NCBI GenBank assembly: GCA_021286765.1
Contig: JAJTBS010000004.1
Coordinates: 27,427-91,426 of the forward strand
From: Holophagaceae bacterium
Lineage (GTDB): Bacteria; Acidobacteriota; Holophagae; Holophagales; Holophagaceae
DNA: 64,000 nt
Direction of reading: 5' to 3'
The notes under the pieces are model-generated. The model did not search any database. It was not told the origin of the DNA and saw only the letters and a program-made list of their open reading frames with translations. This document shows, one piece after another, positions 12,029-25,312 of the stretch; within the stretch, counting starts at the first letter, position 1, and each line of letters begins with the position of its first letter. Both the position numbers and the translations under genes were made by a program.

Positions 12029-12937
12029 ATGGCCCGCCCTCCCGTCCTCCCCGGTCCCCGTCCCGCTTGGCTGAAGATCCGCGTCCCGGCCCCGGAGGTG
12101 GTGGCCGAGGTCGAAGGGCTCATCCGGGAGCAGCGCCTGGTGACGGTCTGCGAGGAGGCCCGCTGCCCCAACCTGCACGAGTGCTGGGGCATCCACCGCA
12201 CGGCCACCTTCATGCTCATGGGCGACATCTGCACGCGGCACTGCGGGTTCTGCAATGTGGGCAAGGGACGGCCTGGCGAACTGGATCCCCAGGAGCCGCA
12301 GCGGGTGGCCGAAGCCGTGGCGCGCCTGGGCCTGCGGTTCGCCGTGGTCACCTCCGTGAACCGGGATGATCTGGCGGACGGCGGCTCCGCGCACTTCGCA
12401 CAGACCATCCAGTGGATCCGCAGCCTCTCCCCGCGCAGCGGCATTGAGGTACTCATCCCGGATTTCCGCGGCGACGAAGCGGCCCTTCAGACCGTGCTGG
12501 AGGCCCGGCCGGACGTGCTGAACCACAACGTGGAGACCGTGCCCCACCTCTACAAGCGGGTGCGGCCGGACGCCGACTACCAGCAGAGCCTGGAGCTGCT
12601 GCGCCGGACGGCGGCCTGGCGGGACCGGCACGCCCCAGCCATGCGCGTGAAGAGCGGCATCATGGTGGGCCTGGGGGAAACGCCCGACCAGGTGCTTGAA
12701 CTGATGGTCGACTGGCGGAATAGCCGTGTGGACGTGGCCACCATAGGCCAATACCTCCCCCCTTCTGAACACCACCTGCCCCTGCACCGGTTCGTGGAGC
12801 CTGCCGAGTTCAAGCTGTACCGGCAGAAAGGCCTGGAGATGGGCTTCGAGCGCGTGGAATCCGCGCCCCTGGTGCGTTCCAGCTACCACGCCGGAGACGG
12901 CTACGGGGGCCCGGAGGCCCCCGCAGCCAGGTCATAA
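12029..12937 (+). CDS. lipA: Lipoyl synthase
   Basis: CEEARCPNLHEC, CTRHCGFC radical-SAM motif, NHNVETV, KSGIMVGLGE, GQYL, RSSY. Confidence 0.97.
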   Translation: MARPPVLPGPRPAWLKIRVPAPEVVAEVEGLIREQRLVTVCEEARCPNLHECWGIHRTATFMLMGDICTRHCGFCNVGKGRPGELDPQEPQRVAEAVARLGLRFAVVTSVNRDDLADGGSAHFAQTIQWIRSLSPRSGIEVLIPDFRGDEAALQTVLEARPDVLNHNVETVPHLYKRVRPDADYQQSLELLRRTAAWRDRHAPAMRVKSGIMVGLGETPDQVLELMVDWRNSRVDVATIGQYLPPSEHHLPLHRFVEPAEFKLYRQKGLEMGFERVESAPLVRSSYHAGDGYGGPEAPAARS

Positions 12938-12943
12938 AGCAGC

Positions 12944-14065
12944 CTAGGCCTTGGCGTGGATGTCCGCGCCGAGGAACTGCTGCTCGAAGGCGGTCCAGTC
13001 CAGCGGTCCGGCGCCCTGGGGGCCGTTCGCCGTGCGAAGGCGGGTGATCTCCTCCTGGTACCAGTCGATGACGGGCTTGCCGATCTTCAGCGCCGAGAGC
13101 TCCGAGGCGAGGTCGCTGGGAGTCAGCAGGCAGACCCAGCCACGGTCATAGGGGCTGCGGATGAGTTCGCCGGGATCGGTCTTCAGGCCGGCGTTGTCAT
13201 GCTCGATGCGGCCCGACAGCGGCGCGGCCACATGGACCGTTCCGGTCGCCCCCTTTAGGGTGAACAGGGTGTCGCCCGCCTTCACGGTCTTGCCACGCTC
13301 GGGCAGCTCGATTTCCTTGACGGTGCCCAGGGCCTTCCGGACGAAGTCGTCGATGCCGATGCGGACCTGGCCTTCCGGCTCGATGCGGACCCAGGCGTGG
13401 CCCGGGGAGAGGAAGGCGCCGCCCGGCACGCAGAACTCGGTGGCAGGCACCACCTCGGCCATCTCGGGCGAAACCATGCGGACATTCGGTCGGCGGGCGG
13501 CTTCGAGCCGGGCTTCGCGCTTGATCAGGAGCTTCTTGGCGAAGTCGCCGAGCTCATCGGCGGTGAAGGGCTTCTGCACGTACTCACAGGCGCCGTGCTG
13601 CAGGGTCTGGACGGCGGTCTCAATGCTGCCGTAGCCCGTGATGACGACCACGTCCACGTCGGGGCGCAGGTGCTTGACCGCCTTCACGACCTCCACGCCG
13701 TCCATGTCCGGCATCTTGAGGTCGGTAAACAGGAAGTCATAGTCATTGCGCTGCACCAGGCCCAGGGCCTCGGGGCCGTGCTCGACCGTGTCCACGCTGA
13801 AACCCTCCAGGACGAGGATGCGCCGGAAGGAGTCCAGCACCACGGCCTCATCGTCCACGGCCAGGATGCGGGCCTTGGGATTGGGGACCGCGACCCGCTT
13901 GAGGCTCTTGGCCTCGTGGGTGAAGTCCAGGCGGATGGCGGTGTTGAGGACGGCTTCACGCGCCTGGCGTTCCCGGTTCTCCCGCATTCGCCTGAGCGAG
14001 GTTCGCACCACGAAGTCGATGCCCACGAAGGCCACAAACATGAGAAGGATCAATACGGCGGTCAT
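12944..14065 (-). CDS. Membrane-anchored response regulator: TM + receiver + GcvH-like domain lacking the lipoyl lysine
   Basis: N-terminal hydrophobic helix. Intact receiver (AVDD, TDLKMP D115, ITGYG, QKPF). C-terminus HAWVR...RIGIDDF...LG...IELP..G..V.AGD.L....AAPLSG.I...N....P......PY..GW matches the GcvH fold. Confidence 0.9.
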   Translation of the reverse strand: MTAVLILLMFVAFVGIDFVVRTSLRRMRENRERQAREAVLNTAIRLDFTHEAKSLKRVAVPNPKARILAVDDEAVVLDSFRRILVLEGFSVDTVEHGPEALGLVQRNDYDFLFTDLKMPDMDGVEVVKAVKHLRPDVDVVVITGYGSIETAVQTLQHGACEYVQKPFTADELGDFAKKLLIKREARLEAARRPNVRMVSPEMAEVVPATEFCVPGGAFLSPGHAWVRIEPEGQVRIGIDDFVRKALGTVKEIELPERGKTVKAGDTLFTLKGATGTVHVAAPLSGRIEHDNAGLKTDPGELIRSPYDRGWVCLLTPSDLASELSALKIGKPVIDWYQEEITRLRTANGPQGAGPLDWTAFEQQFLGADIHAKA

Positions 14066-14074
14066 GGCGACCTC

Positions 14075-15601
14075 CTAGGTGAGGGTGGGAATGTTCGGTG
14101 ATCCGCCGTCGGCCCCGGTGGCCGTCGGCAGGCGAAGGGTGAAGCAGGTGCCCTGGCCGGGCTGGCTCTGGACCTCCAGCGAGCCACCGTGGGCCTCCAC
14201 GATGCCCCAGCTGACCGCCAGCCCCAGGCCCGTGCCGTGGTTGCCCTTGGTGGTGAAGAATGGTTCAAAGATCCGCGGCAGGTCCTCAGCGGAGATCCCC
14301 CGGCCGCTGTCCTCCAGCAGGAATTCGATGGCGCCGGGGCTGGCGGACCTGGTGATGGCCCGGATCTGGCCCCCTTCGGCTCCGATGGCATCCGCCGCGT
14401 TCAGCAGGAGGTTCACGACCACCTGCTGGATCTGGTTCGGATCCGCCTGGACCTGGGGCAGGTCTGCCGCCAGATCCAGGGACAGGTTCACCTGGTTCAG
14501 GCTGAGCTGGGTCATCACCACCGAGACAGAGCGCCGCACCACCTCGTTGAGGTCCATGGGTTTCCGGGCCGGGGCCGCGGGCCGGGCGAAGTCAAGCAGC
14601 TCGCGAATGATGCCGCGGCAGCGGACGGTCTCCCGCACGATCACATCCAGGTCCTCGCAGGCCGGCAAGTCGTGCTCCATGCGCTTGCGGAGCAGGGAGG
14701 CATAGCTCAGCACGCCGGTCAGCGGGTTGTTGATTTCATGGGCGACGCCAGCGGCCAGACGGCCGACGGAGGCCAGCTTGTCGGCCTGGGTCAGCTGGCG
14801 CTGCGTATCTGCCAGCGTCTGGGTCATCTCATTGAAGGCCTTGGCGAGTACGCCCAGCTCATGCCGCCCGCTGACGGGAATCGTGACGCCCAGGTCGCCC
14901 TCCATGACCCGGCGGGTGCCCTCGACCAGGGAGGCCACCGGGCGGACCACCAGGCGGCGGTTGAGCCACCAGAGCATGAAGCTTCCGGCCAGGATGGCCA
15001 GGGCGGCGGAGGCCGTGATGACCAGGCGGCTGTGGGCGATCTCCTGATCCACCTCCGCCAGGGAGACATTCACGTCGAGCACGCCGAGGAGGCTCTGCTT
15101 GGCGCTGTGGGCGTGGCAGGCCGCCGTGGAGCAGGACGGCGCATTCGGGATGGGGTTGATGACGCCCAGGACGCGGGTCCCGTCCGCAGCGCGGAAGGTC
15201 CTGGCCCGCGCCTGGATTCCCAGGCGCTCAAGGGGCCGGCCCTCCGCATGGCAGGCGTAGCAAGCCTCCCCCCGGGGATCCAGGCTGGTGCCGATCTCCT
15301 CGCTGGCCGAGGAGAACATGATCTTGCCCTCCTTGTTGAAGACGCGGACCTTGCGGATGCCCTCCTCATGGAGGCCACCCACATCCCGGATCTGGCGGTG
15401 CAGGTTCTCCCGCCGGTTCTCCAGCATGTCGAAGTGGGTGGCGCTCTTGATGGTCTCGCTCAGTTGATCCGCGCTGCGGGTCCGCTCCGCGAGCAGCTGC
15501 GCCGTGTGTGATCGCAGGATGGCCACGGACATGCCCCCGATCACCAGCGCCGTCGTGAGGCCGGCGCCGAGGATCAGACGAGTGCCGATGCGGGTGCGCA
15601 T
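14075..15601 (-). CDS. HAMP-domain sensor histidine kinase with heme-c-type motifs in the periplasmic domain
   Basis: Two TM helices around a sensor with CYACH (15248-15262) and CSTAACH (15113-15133); HAMP; AHEINNPL H-box, NLLLNAADA, DSGRGI, FEPFFTTK, GTGLGL. Confidence 0.93.
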   Translation of the reverse strand: MRTRIGTRLILGAGLTTALVIGGMSVAILRSHTAQLLAERTRSADQLSETIKSATHFDMLENRRENLHRQIRDVGGLHEEGIRKVRVFNKEGKIMFSSASEEIGTSLDPRGEACYACHAEGRPLERLGIQARARTFRAADGTRVLGVINPIPNAPSCSTAACHAHSAKQSLLGVLDVNVSLAEVDQEIAHSRLVITASAALAILAGSFMLWWLNRRLVVRPVASLVEGTRRVMEGDLGVTIPVSGRHELGVLAKAFNEMTQTLADTQRQLTQADKLASVGRLAAGVAHEINNPLTGVLSYASLLRKRMEHDLPACEDLDVIVRETVRCRGIIRELLDFARPAAPARKPMDLNEVVRRSVSVVMTQLSLNQVNLSLDLAADLPQVQADPNQIQQVVVNLLLNAADAIGAEGGQIRAITRSASPGAIEFLLEDSGRGISAEDLPRIFEPFFTTKGNHGTGLGLAVSWGIVEAHGGSLEVQSQPGQGTCFTLRLPTATGADGGSPNIPTLT

Positions 15602-15604
15602 GGC

Positions 15605-16771
15605 TCAGGCTCCCTCTTCCGGGATCTGGGCTTCGGTCACGGGCCCCTCGGGGAAGATGCGCAGATTGCGCACGGCGAAGGCAAATACCGCCATGCCCGT
15701 GGCCACCAGGCCCACCGAGATGATGATCTCCATGGCCGAGGGGATGTAGCGGATCCCCGAAGCGGCTTCCATGCCCGTGATGCTGACGTTCAGCCGGTTC
15801 ATGACGAAACCCATCACGGCGAGGAAGGCCCCGCCCACCAGCCAGTCAGGATGGCTGCGCAAGCGGCGGAAGGACATGAGCACCACAGGCAGGATCACGC
15901 CCATGACGAACTCCAGGAGGAACATCCGCCCTTCATACCCGAAGTCGAGGAGGGTCCCGAACGCATGGTTCCGGTAGATGGCCTGGATGCGCATGAGCCC
16001 GTAGATGCCCAGGGCCACCACCATGCCGCGGGCCAAAGGCTCCAGCAGGTCCATTTCCAGGTGCCGACCGAAGGCCCGCTTGCTGAGGTAGGACTCCAGG
16101 ACCACCATGCCGATGCCCGCACCAATGGCCGAGATGTAGAAGTGAAGCGGCAGCAGCGGGGAGTACCAGAGGGGATGCAGCTTGCTCGGAACGATCAGGT
16201 AGACCGTACCCAGGGAGGACTGGTGCAGGGTTGAGAGGATCACGCCCAGGACCACCAGCGGAGTGATGAACTTATGGATGAGCCGCGCGGGGGCATGGAG
16301 GCCAAAGCGTTCAAAGACGATGGGCGAGAATTCCAACGCCAGCACCGTGGTGTACAGCATCACGCACCAGGCCACCTCGAACATGACGGAGTGGGGATTC
16401 CAATAGACCATGGCGTGCCAGATGCGCCAGGGCTGCCCCAGATCCAGCAGCAGGGCCACGATCACGAAGCCATAGCCCAGAAAGCCCGTGAGCAGGGTGG
16501 GGCGGACGATGGGTTCGAAGCGCTTGAGGTTGAACAGGTGGACGACGGCGGTGAGGGTGAAGGCCCCCGCGGCCAGCCCCACGCCGCAGAGCAGGTCGAA
16601 GCCGATCCAGAGCCCCCAGGGGAACTGGTCGCTCAGGTTGGTCACGGCCCCAAGGCCCTTGGTGAACCTCATGACCGTGACGATGGCGAAGGCGATGAAG
16701 GTTACGGCGAATACGGCCGTCCAGAATCCGGGCCGGAACCGGCGGGTGGCAAGCGTGGCGGTGCTGTTCAT
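15605..16771 (-). CDS. NrfD/HybB-family polytopic membrane subunit
   Basis: GLG.V.NL...FPWG.WI.FDL..G, P.VRP.LL..F.GY, DLG.PW, SV.FE.A.C...Y..V.ALEF.P, LS..HQSSLG; resembles HybB. Confidence 0.9.
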   Translation of the reverse strand: MNSTATLATRRFRPGFWTAVFAVTFIAFAIVTVMRFTKGLGAVTNLSDQFPWGLWIGFDLLCGVGLAAGAFTLTAVVHLFNLKRFEPIVRPTLLTGFLGYGFVIVALLLDLGQPWRIWHAMVYWNPHSVMFEVAWCVMLYTTVLALEFSPIVFERFGLHAPARLIHKFITPLVVLGVILSTLHQSSLGTVYLIVPSKLHPLWYSPLLPLHFYISAIGAGIGMVVLESYLSKRAFGRHLEMDLLEPLARGMVVALGIYGLMRIQAIYRNHAFGTLLDFGYEGRMFLLEFVMGVILPVVLMSFRRLRSHPDWLVGGAFLAVMGFVMNRLNVSITGMEAASGIRYIPSAMEIIISVGLVATGMAVFAFAVRNLRIFPEGPVTEAQIPEEGA

Positions 16772-17520
16772 GACCGGCCTCCCCGTCCGTTGGTATGGTC
16801 TTCAGCCTTGGCCACGTCGTCGCGGCGGGCGGTGATCCAATGAACCCCGAAGAGGAACGCGCCCCAGACACCGACGAAATTGGGAATGTTGGAGAGCACC
16901 TGCCAGGTGCGCTGGGCGGGTGGGTCCGACGGAAGGTTCGTCTTCATCCCCAGCTTCTCGAAGGGGATGTTCGAGATCATCAGCACCGAGGTTCCGCCTG
17001 TTTCCGCGAGGCCGTAGATGTGATCCACATAGGCGCCGGGCTTCGACCGGATGCGGGTCCGCGCCTCCCAGATCAGGTCCTCCTTCTTGCCGAAGGTGGT
17101 GGCTTCCGCCGGGCAGGCCGCCGCGCAAGCCGTGGGCTGCCCATCCTTGACCCGGCCAGCGCACATGATGCACTTGCCGATGACGGGCACGGGGCGATCC
17201 CACTGATACTTCGGAATCTCGTAGGGGCAAGCCATCATGCAGTAGCGGCAGCCCATGCAGCGTTCGCTGTCGTAGACCACCGGACCTTCAGGCGTCTTCT
17301 TCAGCGCCGCCACCGGGCAGACGGAAGCGCAGGTCGGTACTTCGCAGTGCATGCAGAGGCGGCGGACGTTGAGCCCCTCACGTTCCTGAACCGTGGTCCA
17401 GGTGTAGGCAGTCAACACCTCCTCTACCTTGGCCGGTAGCTTGTTCTGCTCCTTGCATGCGGAGCTGCAAGCGCCGCAACCAATACAGCGCGTAGCGTCA
17501 ATGAGAAGGCCCATGCCCAT
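16768..17520 (-). CDS. HybA/FdnH-like 4x[4Fe-4S] ferredoxin subunit with C-terminal TM anchor
   Basis: Four Cys groups (CIGCGAC..AC, CMHC..P.CASVCP, CMGCRYCM.ACP, KCIMC...P.C..ACP), YG..E.GGT, C-terminal hydrophobic helix; AGGAG SD; no twin-Arg leader. Confidence 0.92.
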   Translation of the reverse strand: MGMGLLIDATRCIGCGACSSACKEQNKLPAKVEEVLTAYTWTTVQEREGLNVRRLCMHCEVPTCASVCPVAALKKTPEGPVVYDSERCMGCRYCMMACPYEIPKYQWDRPVPVIGKCIMCAGRVKDGQPTACAAACPAEATTFGKKEDLIWEARTRIRSKPGAYVDHIYGLAETGGTSVLMISNIPFEKLGMKTNLPSDPPAQRTWQVLSNIPNFVGVWGAFLFGVHWITARRDDVAKAEDHTNGRGGRS

Positions 17521-17576
17521 GGGTGCTCCTGCCTTGTCAATCGACCTCGGGAGGAATTCCCGGGGGTACGGCTGGA

Positions 17577-17605
17577 AGCATGCACTCGGGTTTTTCTATA
17601 GTCAA
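17577..17605 (-). promoter_or_regulatory. Candidate sigma70-type promoter for the hybA-like cluster
   Basis: Minus strand reads TTGACT-N17-CATGCT about 60-85 nt upstream of the start codon; the -10 match is weak. Confidence 0.3.
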
Positions 17606-17927
17606 CCCCTTGGTAGTAATTAAAAACGACATCATTGTCATTAGTAAGAATCGCGCCGGAGCGGCCTGGCAAATACTGGACTCTCAGGTATTTTCACTTT
17701 TCTTCGAATAGCCGCCTCGCAGGTCCTCTTGCTTGCTCTGATACACGCGAATTGAGGCTTTTGAGATCGACGAATTTCAAACTCATGAGACATCTTCGTC
17801 CGCAGTGGAGCATGAATCGCCGGGGTGATTTCCGATCTGGCCATCTCAAAAATGAAGCCTCTGCGGCCCTCATGGCGCTTTCAATGCGACAAGGCACCGC
17901 CGGGGTGAAACCGGATTTCTAGAAAGG

Positions 17928-17955
17928 AAAGGGCCCCGCAACCGCGGGGCCCTTT
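17928..17955 (-). terminator. Rho-independent terminator after groEL
   Basis: AAAGGGCCCCGC-aacc-GCGGGGCCCTTT perfect stem; TTTCCTTTCT follows on the minus strand. Confidence 0.85.
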
Positions 17956-17979
17956 GACAAACCGCGAAACGCGGCTGAA

Positions 17980-22054: not shown

Positions 22055-23791
22055 ATGCGCACCCTGCCGGTCTTCTTTGCCCTCGCGCTGGCGCCTCTCC
22101 AGTGCCAGGTGCGAGAGGTGCGCACCACGGCCAAGGACCGCACCTCCCTCAGCGTCACCATCTACCAGAGCGGCCTCGCCGCCATCCGCGACACCCGCCG
22201 CGTAAACCTGCCCGCAGGTCCCAGCCGCCTGGCCTTCGCGGACCTGATGCCCAGTCTGCGGCCCAAGAGCGCCACCCTGCGCGATCCTGGCGGTGGGCTC
22301 CAGGTGCGCGAGCGCAACTACGAGTTCAACCTGCTCAGCCCCGCCTCGTTGGTGGAGGCCAGCCTGGGCTTGCCCGTGCGGGTAAAAGGGGAGAACGGGA
22401 AGGCCGACCAGCACGGGACTCTGGCATCGTCGCCATTGCTGAATCCCAGGCTGCGGCCCGATGCCAAGCCCCTTGACCGCATCGCGCGAAGGCCAAGTGC
22501 CTTCATCCAACCACCCGATCCCAATGTACTGGTGGTGACCCCCGAGGGCCTTGCGAGCCATGCTCCCGGACGCCTTGCCTTCAGTCAGGTGCCGCACCAT
22601 CTCCTCGCCTCCCCAACCCTGGTCCAGGATTTGGTCACCCAGGCACCGGAATCTCTGGACCTCACCTTGCTCTACACCGCCACCGGCCTGGCCTGGACCG
22701 CCCACTACGTGGCCACCCTGGACATGGACGGGACCCACCTCGATCTGGATGCATTTGCTACGGTTCAGAACGAGGGCGATCAGGCGCTTCCCGATACCAA
22801 CCTGCAACTGCTAGCGGGTGACCCCAACATCGTCTACGAACCGCCCGTAGCCGACCCGAGCACACCATCAACGGACCAAACTCAAGTCGTAGAGGTGCTT
22901 GCCACGGCCGTGGCTGGCCCCCCCGTCTTCAAGGAAGAAAAGCTGTCCGAATACCCCGTGTTCACCTTGGACCGTCCGGTCACCCTCGCCCCGCGAGCGA
23001 ACAAGCAGCTGAAATTGATGTCTGCGGCGCATGTTCCAGTCAAGCAGACCTTCCTTCTCGAGGCGCCGTACCAGGACTATGGTGCCTCTCCGACGACTTT
23101 TGTGGGCTCTGCCCTCTTTCAGCTCGAGCCCCCCACATTCGCGTTCTCGCCAGTTCCTCAGCGCTGGAGAACCCTTGAAGTCGAGGGGGACTCCCTCAGT
23201 GAACTCCCACCCTCCAGCATGCAGCGCATCAACCAGGAGGTGGAGCACGACCAATGGGTGGCCTGCCACCACCCCCCCGTGCGCCGGATGGGCAATGTCC
23301 CCAACACAGCGGCCTCCGGCCTCGGCCGGGCCCTGCCCAAGGGCTCTATCCTGCTGCGCTACCAGGATCCTTCCGGGGCCCTGGTCCTGCTTGGCGGCGG
23401 CCAAAACCAGGAGGCGGAGTTCCCCCCAACCCCCACGGGGGAGACGATCGAGCTTGTGCTTGGCCCGGCCCGGGGCTTCCGAGTGACGCGACGTGGCACC
23501 TTCCAGAGGGCCCTCCCGACGGCCCCGATCATGGACGACCAGGGACGGACGTGCCCCCGGCGTCAGTATGAATACGGGGTAGAGGTCCGGATCCATAACT
23601 CACTTGGGTCGGAGACCATGGTCACCGTCCGGGAACCCGTCACAGCGGGATGGGAGGTGCTGTCCTCCAGCCAGCCCGGCCACCGCTCTGGCGCGGATGC
23701 CTATGATTTCCAGGTCCGCATCCCCTCTAGGGGCCAGGCCACCCTCACCTACACCGCGCGAACGGACCTTGAACAGTGGGGCCCGGAATGA
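22055..23791 (+). CDS. DUF4140/DUF4139-domain exported protein, divergent paralog 1
   Basis: LSVTIYQ..LA.IRDTR, ERNYEFNLLSP.SL, L.Y.A.GL.W.A.YVA, L.L.AGD, EE..SEY..FTL.RP.TL, paralogous to the next gene. Confidence 0.85.
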   Translation: MRTLPVFFALALAPLQCQVREVRTTAKDRTSLSVTIYQSGLAAIRDTRRVNLPAGPSRLAFADLMPSLRPKSATLRDPGGGLQVRERNYEFNLLSPASLVEASLGLPVRVKGENGKADQHGTLASSPLLNPRLRPDAKPLDRIARRPSAFIQPPDPNVLVVTPEGLASHAPGRLAFSQVPHHLLASPTLVQDLVTQAPESLDLTLLYTATGLAWTAHYVATLDMDGTHLDLDAFATVQNEGDQALPDTNLQLLAGDPNIVYEPPVADPSTPSTDQTQVVEVLATAVAGPPVFKEEKLSEYPVFTLDRPVTLAPRANKQLKLMSAAHVPVKQTFLLEAPYQDYGASPTTFVGSALFQLEPPTFAFSPVPQRWRTLEVEGDSLSELPPSSMQRINQEVEHDQWVACHHPPVRRMGNVPNTAASGLGRALPKGSILLRYQDPSGALVLLGGGQNQEAEFPPTPTGETIELVLGPARGFRVTRRGTFQRALPTAPIMDDQGRTCPRRQYEYGVEVRIHNSLGSETMVTVREPVTAGWEVLSSSQPGHRSGADAYDFQVRIPSRGQATLTYTARTDLEQWGPE

Positions 23792-23878
23792 CGCTGGCGC
23801 GCTTGAAAGGATTTCCCCGTTCCCGACATCACCAGGTAGTGGGCCGCTAGCTGGCCCGTCACCCACCCCGGAGGTCCC

Positions 23879-25312
23879 ATGCGCTCAACCCTGCTCCTCG
23901 CCGCCCTGCCTTCGCTCCTGGTCGCCCAGGAGACATCCACCACGCTGAAGGATCAGAAGGCGCTGGCGGTGACGATCTACAACGACAACCTGGCCCTGGT
24001 GAAGGACACGCGGGAGGTGCGGCTGCCCAAGGGGGAGGCGCGGCTGGCCTTCCAGGAGGTGTCGGCGCAGATCCGGCCCGAGACAGCCCTGCTGCGGAAC
24101 CTCACCCACCCGAAAGATTTCTGGGTGGCGGAGCAGAACTTCGACTTCGACCTACTCACGCCCCAGAAGCTGCTGGAGAAGTATGTGGGGGAGAAGGTCA
24201 CCATCGTGCGCAGTGTGCCCAATGCCGAGGGCGCCGGCTCCAAGGAGGTGCGCGAGGAGGCCACGGTGCTGGCCACCAACAATGGCACGGTGCTGCAGTT
24301 CGCCGACCGCATCGAGACCAGCATCCCAGGTCGAATCGTGTACTCCAAGGTGCCTGGCAACCTGCGGGCCCGGCCCACGCTGGTGATCAGCCTAAACAGT
24401 GGCGTGGAGAAGGCCCAGCAGCTGGAGCTGAGCTACCTCACAGGCGGCCTCTCCTGGCGCGCCGACTATGTGGCCAACCTGTCTTCGGACGAGAAGGCCC
24501 TGGATCTCAGCGGCTGGGTGACCCTCACCAATCAGAGCGGCGCCGCCTATCCCAATGCCACGCTTCAGTTGGTCGCGGGGGACGTGAACCGGGTACGGGA
24601 GCGGCGCATGGACAACGTGGCCTTCCTCTCGGCGGGCGTGGCCAAGGCCGCCGCCCCAGCGCCGAAGATGGCCGAGGAGAGCCTCTTCGAATACCACCTC
24701 TACACCCTGGATCGCCCCACCACCCTGGCCGTGAACCAGACCAAGCAGGTGGCCCTGCTCAGCGCCAGCGGCGTGCCGGTGCGCAAGGAATACCTGCTGC
24801 AAGGCCAGAACCACTACTACTCCGGCAGCTACGGCGACCTGGGCGAGAAGCAGAAGGTGGGCGTATTCGTGGAGTTCGACAACAAGGAGTCCAGCCGCCT
24901 GGGCATGCCCCTGCCCAAGGGCATCATCCGCGTCTACAAGCGCGACGGCGAGGGCCGCGCCCAGTTCGTGGGCGAGGACAACGTGGACCACACCCCCAAG
25001 AACGAGTTGGTGCGCCTGAAGCTGGGCGATGCCTTCGATGTCACGGCCAAGCGGAAACAGACCGACTTCAAGAGCCTGGGCCGCCAGGGGAAGTTCGGTT
25101 ACGTGTATGAATCCGCTTTCGAGGTGGAGCTGAAGAACGCCAAGAAGGAGGCCGTCACCGTGAACCTCCTGGAGCCCATGCCCGGGGACTGGGAGGTGCT
25201 GCAGAGCAGCCAGCCCGCCATCAAGGAGGCCTCGGGCACCGCCCGCTTCAAGGTCACGGTGCCCGCCGAGGGCCGCGCCTCACTGACCTACCGGGTGCGG
25301 GTGAGGTGGTAG
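23879..25312 (+). CDS. DUF4140/DUF4139-domain exported protein, paralog 2
   Basis: Signal peptide; AVTIYNDNLALVKD.R, EQNFDFDLL, LSYLTGGLSW.ADY, EYHLYTL.RPTTL, LG.PLP.G..RVY, GED...HTP. Confidence 0.92.
   Translation: MRSTLLLAALPSLLVAQETSTTLKDQKALAVTIYNDNLALVKDTREVRLPKGEARLAFQEVSAQIRPETALLRNLTHPKDFWVAEQNFDFDLLTPQKLLEKYVGEKVTIVRSVPNAEGAGSKEVREEATVLATNNGTVLQFADRIETSIPGRIVYSKVPGNLRARPTLVISLNSGVEKAQQLELSYLTGGLSWRADYVANLSSDEKALDLSGWVTLTNQSGAAYPNATLQLVAGDVNRVRERRMDNVAFLSAGVAKAAAPAPKMAEESLFEYHLYTLDRPTTLAVNQTKQVALLSASGVPVRKEYLLQGQNHYYSGSYGDLGEKQKVGVFVEFDNKESSRLGMPLPKGIIRVYKRDGEGRAQFVGEDNVDHTPKNELVRLKLGDAFDVTAKRKQTDFKSLGRQGKFGYVYESAFEVELKNAKKEAVTVNLLEPMPGDWEVLQSSQPAIKEASGTARFKVTVPAEGRASLTYRVRVRW

Follow-up and report, generated by a model that had tools for sequence, protein, structure and literature searches.

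What output can a response regulator have when its output domain is the fold of a cofactor carrier and the residue that carries the cofactor is gone? The question is raised by one gene in a 64,000-nucleotide stretch of a Holophagaceae bacterium contig ('the window', to which all coordinates refer unless another locus is named). The gene encodes a 373-residue protein, here called the regulator, with a receiver followed by a domain resembling the H-protein of the glycine cleavage system, GcvH. The genome is that of a Geothrix (Holophagaceae, Acidobacteriota), and the nearest homologues carry the names Geothrix or Holophagaceae. Pfam and NCBI profile searches found no DNA-binding or enzymatic domain in it; to our knowledge, nearly all well-understood response regulators alter transcription, second-messenger levels or motility. 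An original prediction, made from the sequence alone, read the output as a non-lipoylated H-protein fold repurposed as a phosphorylation-controlled interaction domain.

The output domain is an H-protein fold without the lipoyl lysine

The results of profile, sequence and structure comparisons place the domain among H-proteins. The match to the Pfam profile GCV_H (PF01597) has an E value of 3.2e-18 and a score of 66.2 bits, against a cut-off of 22.2. A phmmer search against PDB chains aligns residues 258-285, GKTVKAGDTLFTLKGATGTVHVAAPLSG, without gaps to the H-proteins of pea, Thermus, Mycobacterium and E. coli. In this alignment L270-K271-G272-A273-T274 stands opposite V-E-S-V-K of the H-proteins: that is, the lipoyl lysine of the pea ('VESVKATSDV'), T. 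thermophilus and M. tuberculosis proteins faces T274 (ACC, 13244-13246), and the Glu of ESVK faces K271 (AAG, 13253-13255). Being opposite the H-protein lysine in a gapless alignment, T274 takes the place of the lipoyl lysine. The original prediction had made exactly these assignments, namely a gapless match to GcvH, Thr at the lipoyl-lysine position with the ES.K motif lost, and K271 at the Glu position, and all are borne out by the alignment to PDB sequences and by the codon table.

An AlphaFold single-chain model of the regulator, built on 44 homologues, gives predicted local distance difference test (pLDDT) values of 85-95 for residues 210-330, with strands at 266-271 and 276-280 and with G272-A273-T274-G275 in the turn of the hairpin. 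In a Foldseek comparison, all 20 best matches are H-proteins, with target template-modelling (TM) scores of 0.74-0.92 (0.90-0.92 for the top ten, at a root-mean-square deviation, rmsd, of 1.2-1.8 Å); the partners include the E. coli, Thermus, bovine and human H-proteins, with TM scores of 0.91 to 3ab9, 1onl and 3klr. Sequence identity to the structurally matched H-proteins is ~30%, at an rmsd of ~1.6 Å. Away from the hairpin the hallmarks of H-proteins are kept: H223-x-W225, G237-x-D-D-F, P282-x-x-G285 and P305-Y...G309-W310. We conclude that the domain is a complete H-protein fold from which the lipoyl lysine is absent, and we predict that it is unable to serve as a lipoate carrier.

The domain also scores far below the cut-offs of NCBI's GcvH equivalog profiles, with 63.5 against a cut-off of 115.85 for TIGR00527 and 66 against 117 for NF002270. 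One other GCV_H gene is present in the genome, on contig 4; it encodes 136 residues with the motif GTVESVKTV and directly adjoins gcvT. Four traits, then, bear on membership in GcvH: the domain has the fold and lacks the other three, that is, the tip lysine in ESVK, the curated score and the linkage to gcvT/gcvP.

Absence of the lysine is a family trait

Homologues, too, are without the lysine. In a close set of 120 homologues, 67-93% identical to the regulator, the tip column reads A 35, T 32, S 23, E 10, G 7, D 5 and K 4 times and is other than K in 117 of 121 sequences. For a distant set, the C-terminal 178 residues were searched against 1.84 billion cluster representatives, which gave 4708 matches at E ≤ 0.001 (1337 at E ≤ 1e-10), and the best 150 50%-cluster representatives of these 4708 matches, with 156 aligned domains, were taken. 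In these the tip column holds G, D, A, E, S, T or N, the typical hairpin is R-Q-G-G/D-R, and a lysine is absent from 149 of the 156 domains; where K is found, in the other 7, it never stands in an ESVK context. The sporadic tip-column lysines (4/121 close, 7/156 distant) are without the ESVK context, and we read them as surface variation. We conclude that absence of the lysine is a trait of the family, not an accident in one gene. The family-wide loss, the separate canonical GcvH and the equivalog scores below cut-off together make the domain a divergent paralogue of GcvH and not a glycine-cleavage carrier.

The loss of the lysine is accompanied by retention of the domain. Median ratios of nonsynonymous to synonymous substitution rates (dN/dS) are 0.085 for the receiver, 0.30 for the GcvH-like domain and 0.52 for the C-terminal extension, and 27 residues from position 215 onward are invariant across the 44 homologues, down to 49% identity; of the 116 domain positions, the fifteen with the most variation include 273, 274 and 276, at the hairpin. 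R235, D239, D240, F241 and K244 make up a conserved face of the domain. We conclude that the GcvH-like domain is held by purifying selection.

The domain belongs to a widespread and mostly receiver-less family

Homology within the family does not end with the Pfam domain but continues through a helix, IG..A..WY..E..R, and then, in many members, a tail, W..F...FL; in the regulator it reaches approximately residue 345 and picks up again in the tail. The best 150 representatives share the lysine-less GcvH fold, the C-terminal helix (as IG..A..W...E..R) with its tail, and a preceding membrane helix or input module. The commonest form is a membrane helix plus the domain, ~230 residues long and without a receiver, and an N-terminal membrane helix is present in 90 of the 109 family proteins of 201-275 residues among the cluster representatives. 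Other forms place ahead of the domain a membrane helix and receiver (as in the regulator here), a membrane helix and degenerate receiver, a signal/membrane helix with a periplasmic-binding-protein domain and a further membrane helix, or a Cys-rich N-terminus. The domain is spread over several phyla in thousands of proteins, most of them without a receiver. We conclude that the lysine-less GcvH-like domain and its C-terminal extension are a pre-existing, widespread family, mostly membrane-tethered and receiver-less. The repurposing of the original prediction accordingly stands as to an H-fold without its lysine; it does not stand as a one-off event in a single regulator, since the family is widespread and mostly receiver-less. 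To judge from these architectures, the receiver is one among several interchangeable N-terminal input modules, and the domain, behind such modules, stands at the position of a signalling output.

Two relatives have unusual partners. In a 338-residue paralogue from a Blastocatellia metagenome-assembled genome (MAG; L083:6981-7997), a Cys-rich N-terminus, C-x14-C-x5-C-x2-C and then C-x2-C, replaces the membrane helix and may be a metal or iron-sulfur (FeS) site; its gene lies directly before that of a 232-residue membrane-anchored paralogue. The cluster representative P0129 (1391 residues) joins three tandem lysine-less GCV_H domains to FAD_binding_4, FAD-oxidase_C, 4Fe-4S dicluster and two CCG domains, and this GlcD/HdrD-like enzyme fusion links the domain family also to Hdr-type enzymes.

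In the papers found, a coverage outside which most subscription journals lie, neither a receiver-GcvH fusion nor a lysine-less GcvH beside NrfD is described, and a response regulator with a cofactor-free H-protein output is, within that coverage, undescribed both as an architecture and as a family.

A membrane-anchored, intact receiver precedes the domain

The regulator has the REC profile, the switch residues and an adjacent HAMP-HisKA-HATPase kinase of a response regulator. The residues D71, D72, D115 (the phospho-acceptor, codon 13721-13723), T143, Y162 and K165 are all present, and all are invariant in the 44 aligned homologues. The N-terminal transmembrane helix (Table 1) is directly followed by the Arg-rich stretch RTSLRRMRENRER. 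By the positive-inside rule, which is used to place protein segments relative to the membrane, this stretch points to a cytoplasmic location for the rest of the regulator; the receiver must be cytoplasmic in any case, because it has to meet the kinase. The original prediction was thus also right about the Asp, Thr and Lys of the receiver and about the membrane helix. The receiver and the helix that links it to the output domain form a unit resembling the receiver-plus-linker structures of DctD and NtrC1, which are among the Foldseek matches. In the C-terminal extension, which shows the family motifs as IG..V..WY..E..R and W..F...FL, G329, W335, Y336, E339 and F364 are invariant across the 44 aligned homologues.

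Table 1. Coordinates of the regulator gene, its segments and the other cassette genes in the window.
Feature	Position	Strand	Basis
Regulator gene, 373 residues, receiver and GcvH-like output	12944..14065	-	Open reading frame and translation; stop codon 12944-12946
N-terminal transmembrane helix, residues 2-20	14006..14062	-	Hydropathy 2.67 over 19 residues; helix in model
Receiver (REC), residues 67-172	13550..13867	-	Pfam PF00072 Response_reg, E 7e-28, 97.4 bits
Alpha-5/linker helix from receiver to output, residues 169-190	13496..13561	-	Helix in AlphaFold model
GcvH-fold domain without lipoyl lysine, residues 213-328	13082..13429	-	Pfam GCV_H 223-324, model, Foldseek
Hairpin that carries the lipoyl lysine in true H-proteins, residues 266-280	13226..13270	-	Gapless PDB alignment, codon table
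C-terminal helical extension, residues 329-373	12947..13081	-	Homology, invariant residues, modelled helices 330-346 and 357-365
Cognate sensor histidine kinase, HAMP-HisKA-HATPase	14075..15601	-	Pfam; stop codon 9 nt before regulator start
NrfD-family integral membrane (quinone-site) subunit	15605..16771	-	Pfam NrfD E 2.4e-28; eight hydrophobic segments
Four-cluster-type FeS subunit (Fer4_11), first cassette gene	16768..17520	-	Pfam Fer4_11 E 4.5e-20

The regulator closes a conserved four-gene cassette

The regulator is the last gene of a co-directional, tightly spaced cassette in the order FeS protein, NrfD, kinase, regulator. The kinase has transmembrane helices at residues 10-28 and 193-211, and the periplasmic loop between them (29-192) holds the motifs CYACH and CSTAACH. 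One CxxCH and one Cx4CH are found in the periplasmic loop of 83 of the 86 kinases that adjoin family genes across the phylum, and the pair points to a dihaem sensor whose second site is unusual. In the FeS subunit the first Cys cluster stands at residue 12, and a C-terminal segment (~205-232) is moderately hydrophobic and is followed by RRDD; inspection of the sequence found neither a signal peptide nor a longer upstream reading frame.

Relatives of the C-terminal region numbered 327 in a scan of one genome per species, and a comparison was made of 80 loci. Searches by tblastn with the window proteins recover the four genes in unchanged order wherever a compared locus has enough flank, and the cassette is present also in loci labelled Methylomirabilis, Binatia, Eisenbacteria and Vicinamibacteria (MAGs). 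In all loci examined the regulator is the sole receiver protein of the Geothrix-type cassette. Other forms of the family have comparable neighbours: the receiver form in KSB1 adjoins Fer4_11 and an NrfD-multihaem fusion, and the operons of receiver-less members in Blastocatellia-type genomes encode, in this order, two GcvH-like proteins (338 and then 232 residues), Fer4_11, an NrfD-cytochrome c7 fusion, a kinase and a sigma-54 regulator. At 20 sampled loci from other Acidobacteriota families, FeS and NrfD genes lie within 8 kb of the domain in 13, mostly adjacent, and a kinase is found in most. Among 301 Acidobacteriota genomes the domain is present in 80, the NrfD subfamily in 109 and both in 72; the subfamily is present in 37 of the 221 domain-negative genomes. 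The odds ratio for co-occurrence of the domain and the subfamily is 45 (Fisher p 3e-32), or 32 without the own family. No Hdr, CCG or LplA genes were found in the cassette or in the 80 related loci. We conclude that the association of the domain with the FeS/NrfD pair is strong and not obligate.

Several features of the cassette vary. In distant cassettes (L066:2208-4280, L070, L071, L076-L078, L080 and L082) the kinase is ~690 residues long and has a ~200-residue insert between HisKA and HATPase; an extra gene between kinase and regulator in these loci was ruled out, as it is the kinase itself that carries the insert. In four related Holophagaceae loci (L016, L017, L031 and L079) the FeS and NrfD proteins are 46-50% identical to the window pair, and the kinase and regulator 66-86%; the greater divergence of FeS/NrfD suggests replacement of the module by a paralogous type. 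A second NrfD paralogue, 47% identical, is encoded elsewhere in the genome of the window (G000:C3:114974-116056).

The sequences around the cassette contain further features. The ~460-nt spacer between groEL and the cassette (17521-17979) looks AT-rich by eye relative to the G+C-rich flanking genes; it contains a groEL terminator hairpin at ~17927-17951 and TTGACT...TATAGA near 17595-17610. A sigma-54 promoter upstream of the cassette was considered and rejected: pattern matches are fewer than expected by chance, and none in 17521-17979 is convincing. On the other side, lipA (lipoyl synthase; NF004019, 396 bits; 12029-12937, plus strand) is convergent with the regulator gene and ends 6 nt from its stop codon. 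The adjacency was considered as a sign of lipoylation and rejected, since lipA and scpA downstream, with groEL upstream, are restricted to the Geothrix clade and are absent from 26 of 26 more distant cassettes (L057-L082); we read these flanks as local synteny that gives no clue to function. Farther away, at 22055-25312 on the plus strand, two adjacent large open reading frames (578 and 477 residues) have DUF4139 matches only.

The domain probably acts as a docking domain on the FeS/NrfD module

We consider it somewhat better than an even bet that the GcvH-like domain, as a lipoate-free docking domain, acts on the FeS/NrfD module under the control of phosphorylation. This reading builds on the H-protein fold, the family-wide absence of the lysine, the intact receiver, the adjacent kinase, the lack of a DNA-binding or enzymatic domain, the conserved FeS/NrfD cassette, the co-occurrence with the NrfD subfamily, the output position in other architectures and the purifying selection on the domain; the module as target is a proposal. 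According to it, the adjacent kinase would sense a periplasmic redox signal through its CxxCH/Cx4CH motifs, which would bind haem, and would phosphorylate D115. Phosphorylation of the NtrC1/DctD-like receiver, with its long alpha-5 linker helix, would shift the geometry of a dimer, and the cytoplasmic GcvH-like domain and C-terminal helices would thereby be repositioned at the membrane surface. The domain would then dock on, or release, the FeS/NrfD quinone module and so alter its activity or assembly. With direct docking of this kind, the output would be post-translational, not transcriptional. Of the interaction domain in the original prediction, a non-lipoylated H-fold behind a competent receiver beside a kinase has stood the comparison; the interaction role itself has a different footing, being a proposal drawn from gene neighbourhoods and domain architectures.

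A broader proposal is that the cassette is a two-component system with a direct, post-translational effect on a respiratory-type membrane complex: a kinase that senses through periplasmic haem would phosphorylate a membrane-tethered pseudo-H-protein, which would gate an FeS/NrfD quinone module at the level of electron flow or of assembly. The lysine-less domain would then be a general, so far unrecognised cytoplasmic control subunit of NrfD-type modules, and its input could be a receiver, a periplasmic binding domain, a Cys-rich domain or simply a membrane anchor, each in exchange for the others. We put this proposal forward tentatively, as one that could readily prove wrong.

Several findings count against docking on the FeS/NrfD module as the output. 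The FeS/NrfD genes are not within 8 kb at 7 of the 20 sampled loci, and 8 of the 80 domain-positive genomes are without the NrfD subfamily. The odds ratio for co-occurrence carries no correction for phylogeny. An export signal is missing from the FeS protein, and a catalytic subunit from the module. The dN/dS values show weaker selection on the GcvH-like domain than on the receiver, and the weakest on the extension. Finally, in the receiver-less operons a sigma-54 regulator is the obvious partner of the kinase.

The last of these points leads to the strongest alternative, since with a sigma-54 partner for the kinase the domain could be on the sensing side instead of the output side. The domain and the FeS/NrfD proteins would then report the redox state of the quinone pool or cytoplasm by contacting the cytoplasmic domains of the kinase; the receiver form in Geothrix would serve for feedback or as a phosphate sink, with an orphan regulator elsewhere as the true output. 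The receiver-less operons pair the same type of kinase with the sigma-54 regulator and have the GcvH-like proteins as separate membrane proteins. The linkage of the kinase to the domain is as tight as that of FeS/NrfD, two loci (L122 and L127) have a kinase and no FeS/NrfD nearby, and the kinase is kept with its haem motifs in the 83 of 86 cases noted above. However, the regulator is the only receiver protein of the Geothrix-type cassette, and a system lacking an output would be odd; in single proteins, moreover, the domain stands behind a periplasmic binding domain, that is, in an output position. We prefer the signalling-output reading because an input-only domain would leave the Geothrix-type cassette without an output, and we regard both the sensing role and the orphan-regulator scheme that goes with it as unlikely, if worth keeping in sight.

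A carrier or ligand-binding role for the domain would require a modification other than lipoylation of the tip, such as acylation of K271 or an adduct, for instance a persulfide, on C312, or else the binding of a small molecule in the cleft that the lipoyl arm occupies in true H-proteins. Lysine stands at the K271 position in 87 of 121 close homologues, at least 90% of the receiver-type homologues keep C312 (in GWVC), and P0129, with three domains fused to an FAD-oxidase/FeS/CCG enzyme, offers a catalytic context. However, the K271 position is R, T, H, S or V in the other close homologues and R, Q, H or T in most distant members, K271 lies three residues before the turn position and outside any E-S-V-K context, and L or V replaces C312 in 7 of 20 diverse members. 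Wallis and Perham reportedly found in 1994 that lipoylation requires a lysine exactly at the turn. Lipoylation at K271, which is not conserved and is off the turn, was judged unlikely, and a carrier or ligand role as a whole seems to us distinctly improbable.

A decoy H-protein is less probable again. Such a protein would sequester GcvT, GcvP, Lpd or LipA in a phosphorylation-dependent manner and so regulate one-carbon or lipoate metabolism. Many H-protein hallmark residues outside the hairpin are retained, and lipA lies convergent, 6 nt downstream. Yet only the Geothrix clade has lipA, like groEL and scpA, beside the cassette; the gcv genes are unlinked, the real gcvH-gcvT pair being on another contig; and the family-wide partner is FeS/NrfD. 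We therefore hold regulation by decoy to be very improbable.

That the domain is a decaying, functionless relic of a GcvH fusion in a protein that works as a single-domain receiver is scarcely credible: selection on the domain is indeed weaker than on the receiver, but its dN/dS of 0.30 is well below 1, the domain, the extension and the 27 invariant residues are kept across the 44 homologues, down to 49% identity, and conservation of the domain extends across phyla to thousands of mostly receiver-less proteins.

If docking on the FeS/NrfD module is correct, a regulator that plugs directly into a quinone-linked membrane module would represent a distinct coupling of redox sensing to electron transport, with relevance for metal-reducing and sediment bacteria such as Geothrix, and would add a clear case in which the fold of a cofactor carrier, the H-protein, has become a part of signalling that needs no cofactor. 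The names 'glycine cleavage system H protein' and 'CheY-like protein', now given to thousands of genes, would then need correction. Cultured Geothrix species, G. fermentans DSM 14018 among them, have the family, which opens the idea to work at the bench.

Comparison with known systems

The closest relative of the domain is GcvH itself (PF01597, TIGR00527), with which it shares the fold and the HxW, G-x-D-D/Y-F/A, P-x-S-G and PY..GW motifs. Unlike GcvH, it is without the lipoyl lysine and ESVK, falls below the TIGR00527 cut-off and is unlinked to gcvT/gcvP, and in the fused protein a membrane helix and a receiver stand ahead of it, while an additional conserved helical extension follows at the C-terminus. 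A second H-protein paralogue, LbpA of the sulfur-oxidising Hdr-like system, has the lipoyl lysine in 95 of 95 sequences and two conserved cysteines in most (PMC6067878). Like the regulator domain, LbpA is a GcvH paralogue that has been taken into a membrane- or FeS-linked redox system other than glycine cleavage; however, the regulator has no such lysine and its cassette has neither hdr-like neighbours nor dedicated ligase genes, which places it outside LbpA.

Two comparisons are by analogy. RssB combines a receiver with an inactive PP2C-like domain and exerts its output by protein binding, and RssB structures are among the Foldseek matches, through the receiver. In its way of working the present regulator would come closest to regulators of the RssB type: in both, a canonical receiver controls a domain of ancestral fold from which the key functional residue is gone, and this domain presumably works by binding a partner; they differ in that the output fold here is another one, the protein is membrane-anchored, and the presumed partner is a respiratory-type membrane module, not a sigma factor or protease. 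The N-terminal domains of NqrA (PF05896) and RnfC (PF13375) are likewise cofactor-less lipoyl/biotinyl-like beta-folds that serve as structural parts of quinone-linked complexes. Over the hairpin region there are weak Pfam matches to NQRA_N (E 0.015 here and 1.4e-4 in the orthologue L066) and, in a relative, to RnfC_N; all are below the gathering cut-off (for NQRA_N 15.9 bits vs. 25 here and 22.4 vs. 25 in L066). In structure as in sequence, H-proteins alone make up the best matches, and the domain is therefore a GcvH paralogue, not an NqrA/RnfC-type domain.

The FeS/NrfD pair, finally, with its Fer4_11 four-cluster protein and NrfD membrane protein, resembles two-subunit FeS/NrfD quinone modules such as HybA/HybB of hydrogenase-2, PsrB/PsrC and HmcB/HmcC. 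In contrast to these systems, the Geothrix cassette has no catalytic or cytochrome subunit and its FeS protein no Tat or Sec signal; the partners of its module are instead a haem-motif kinase and a GcvH-like regulator.

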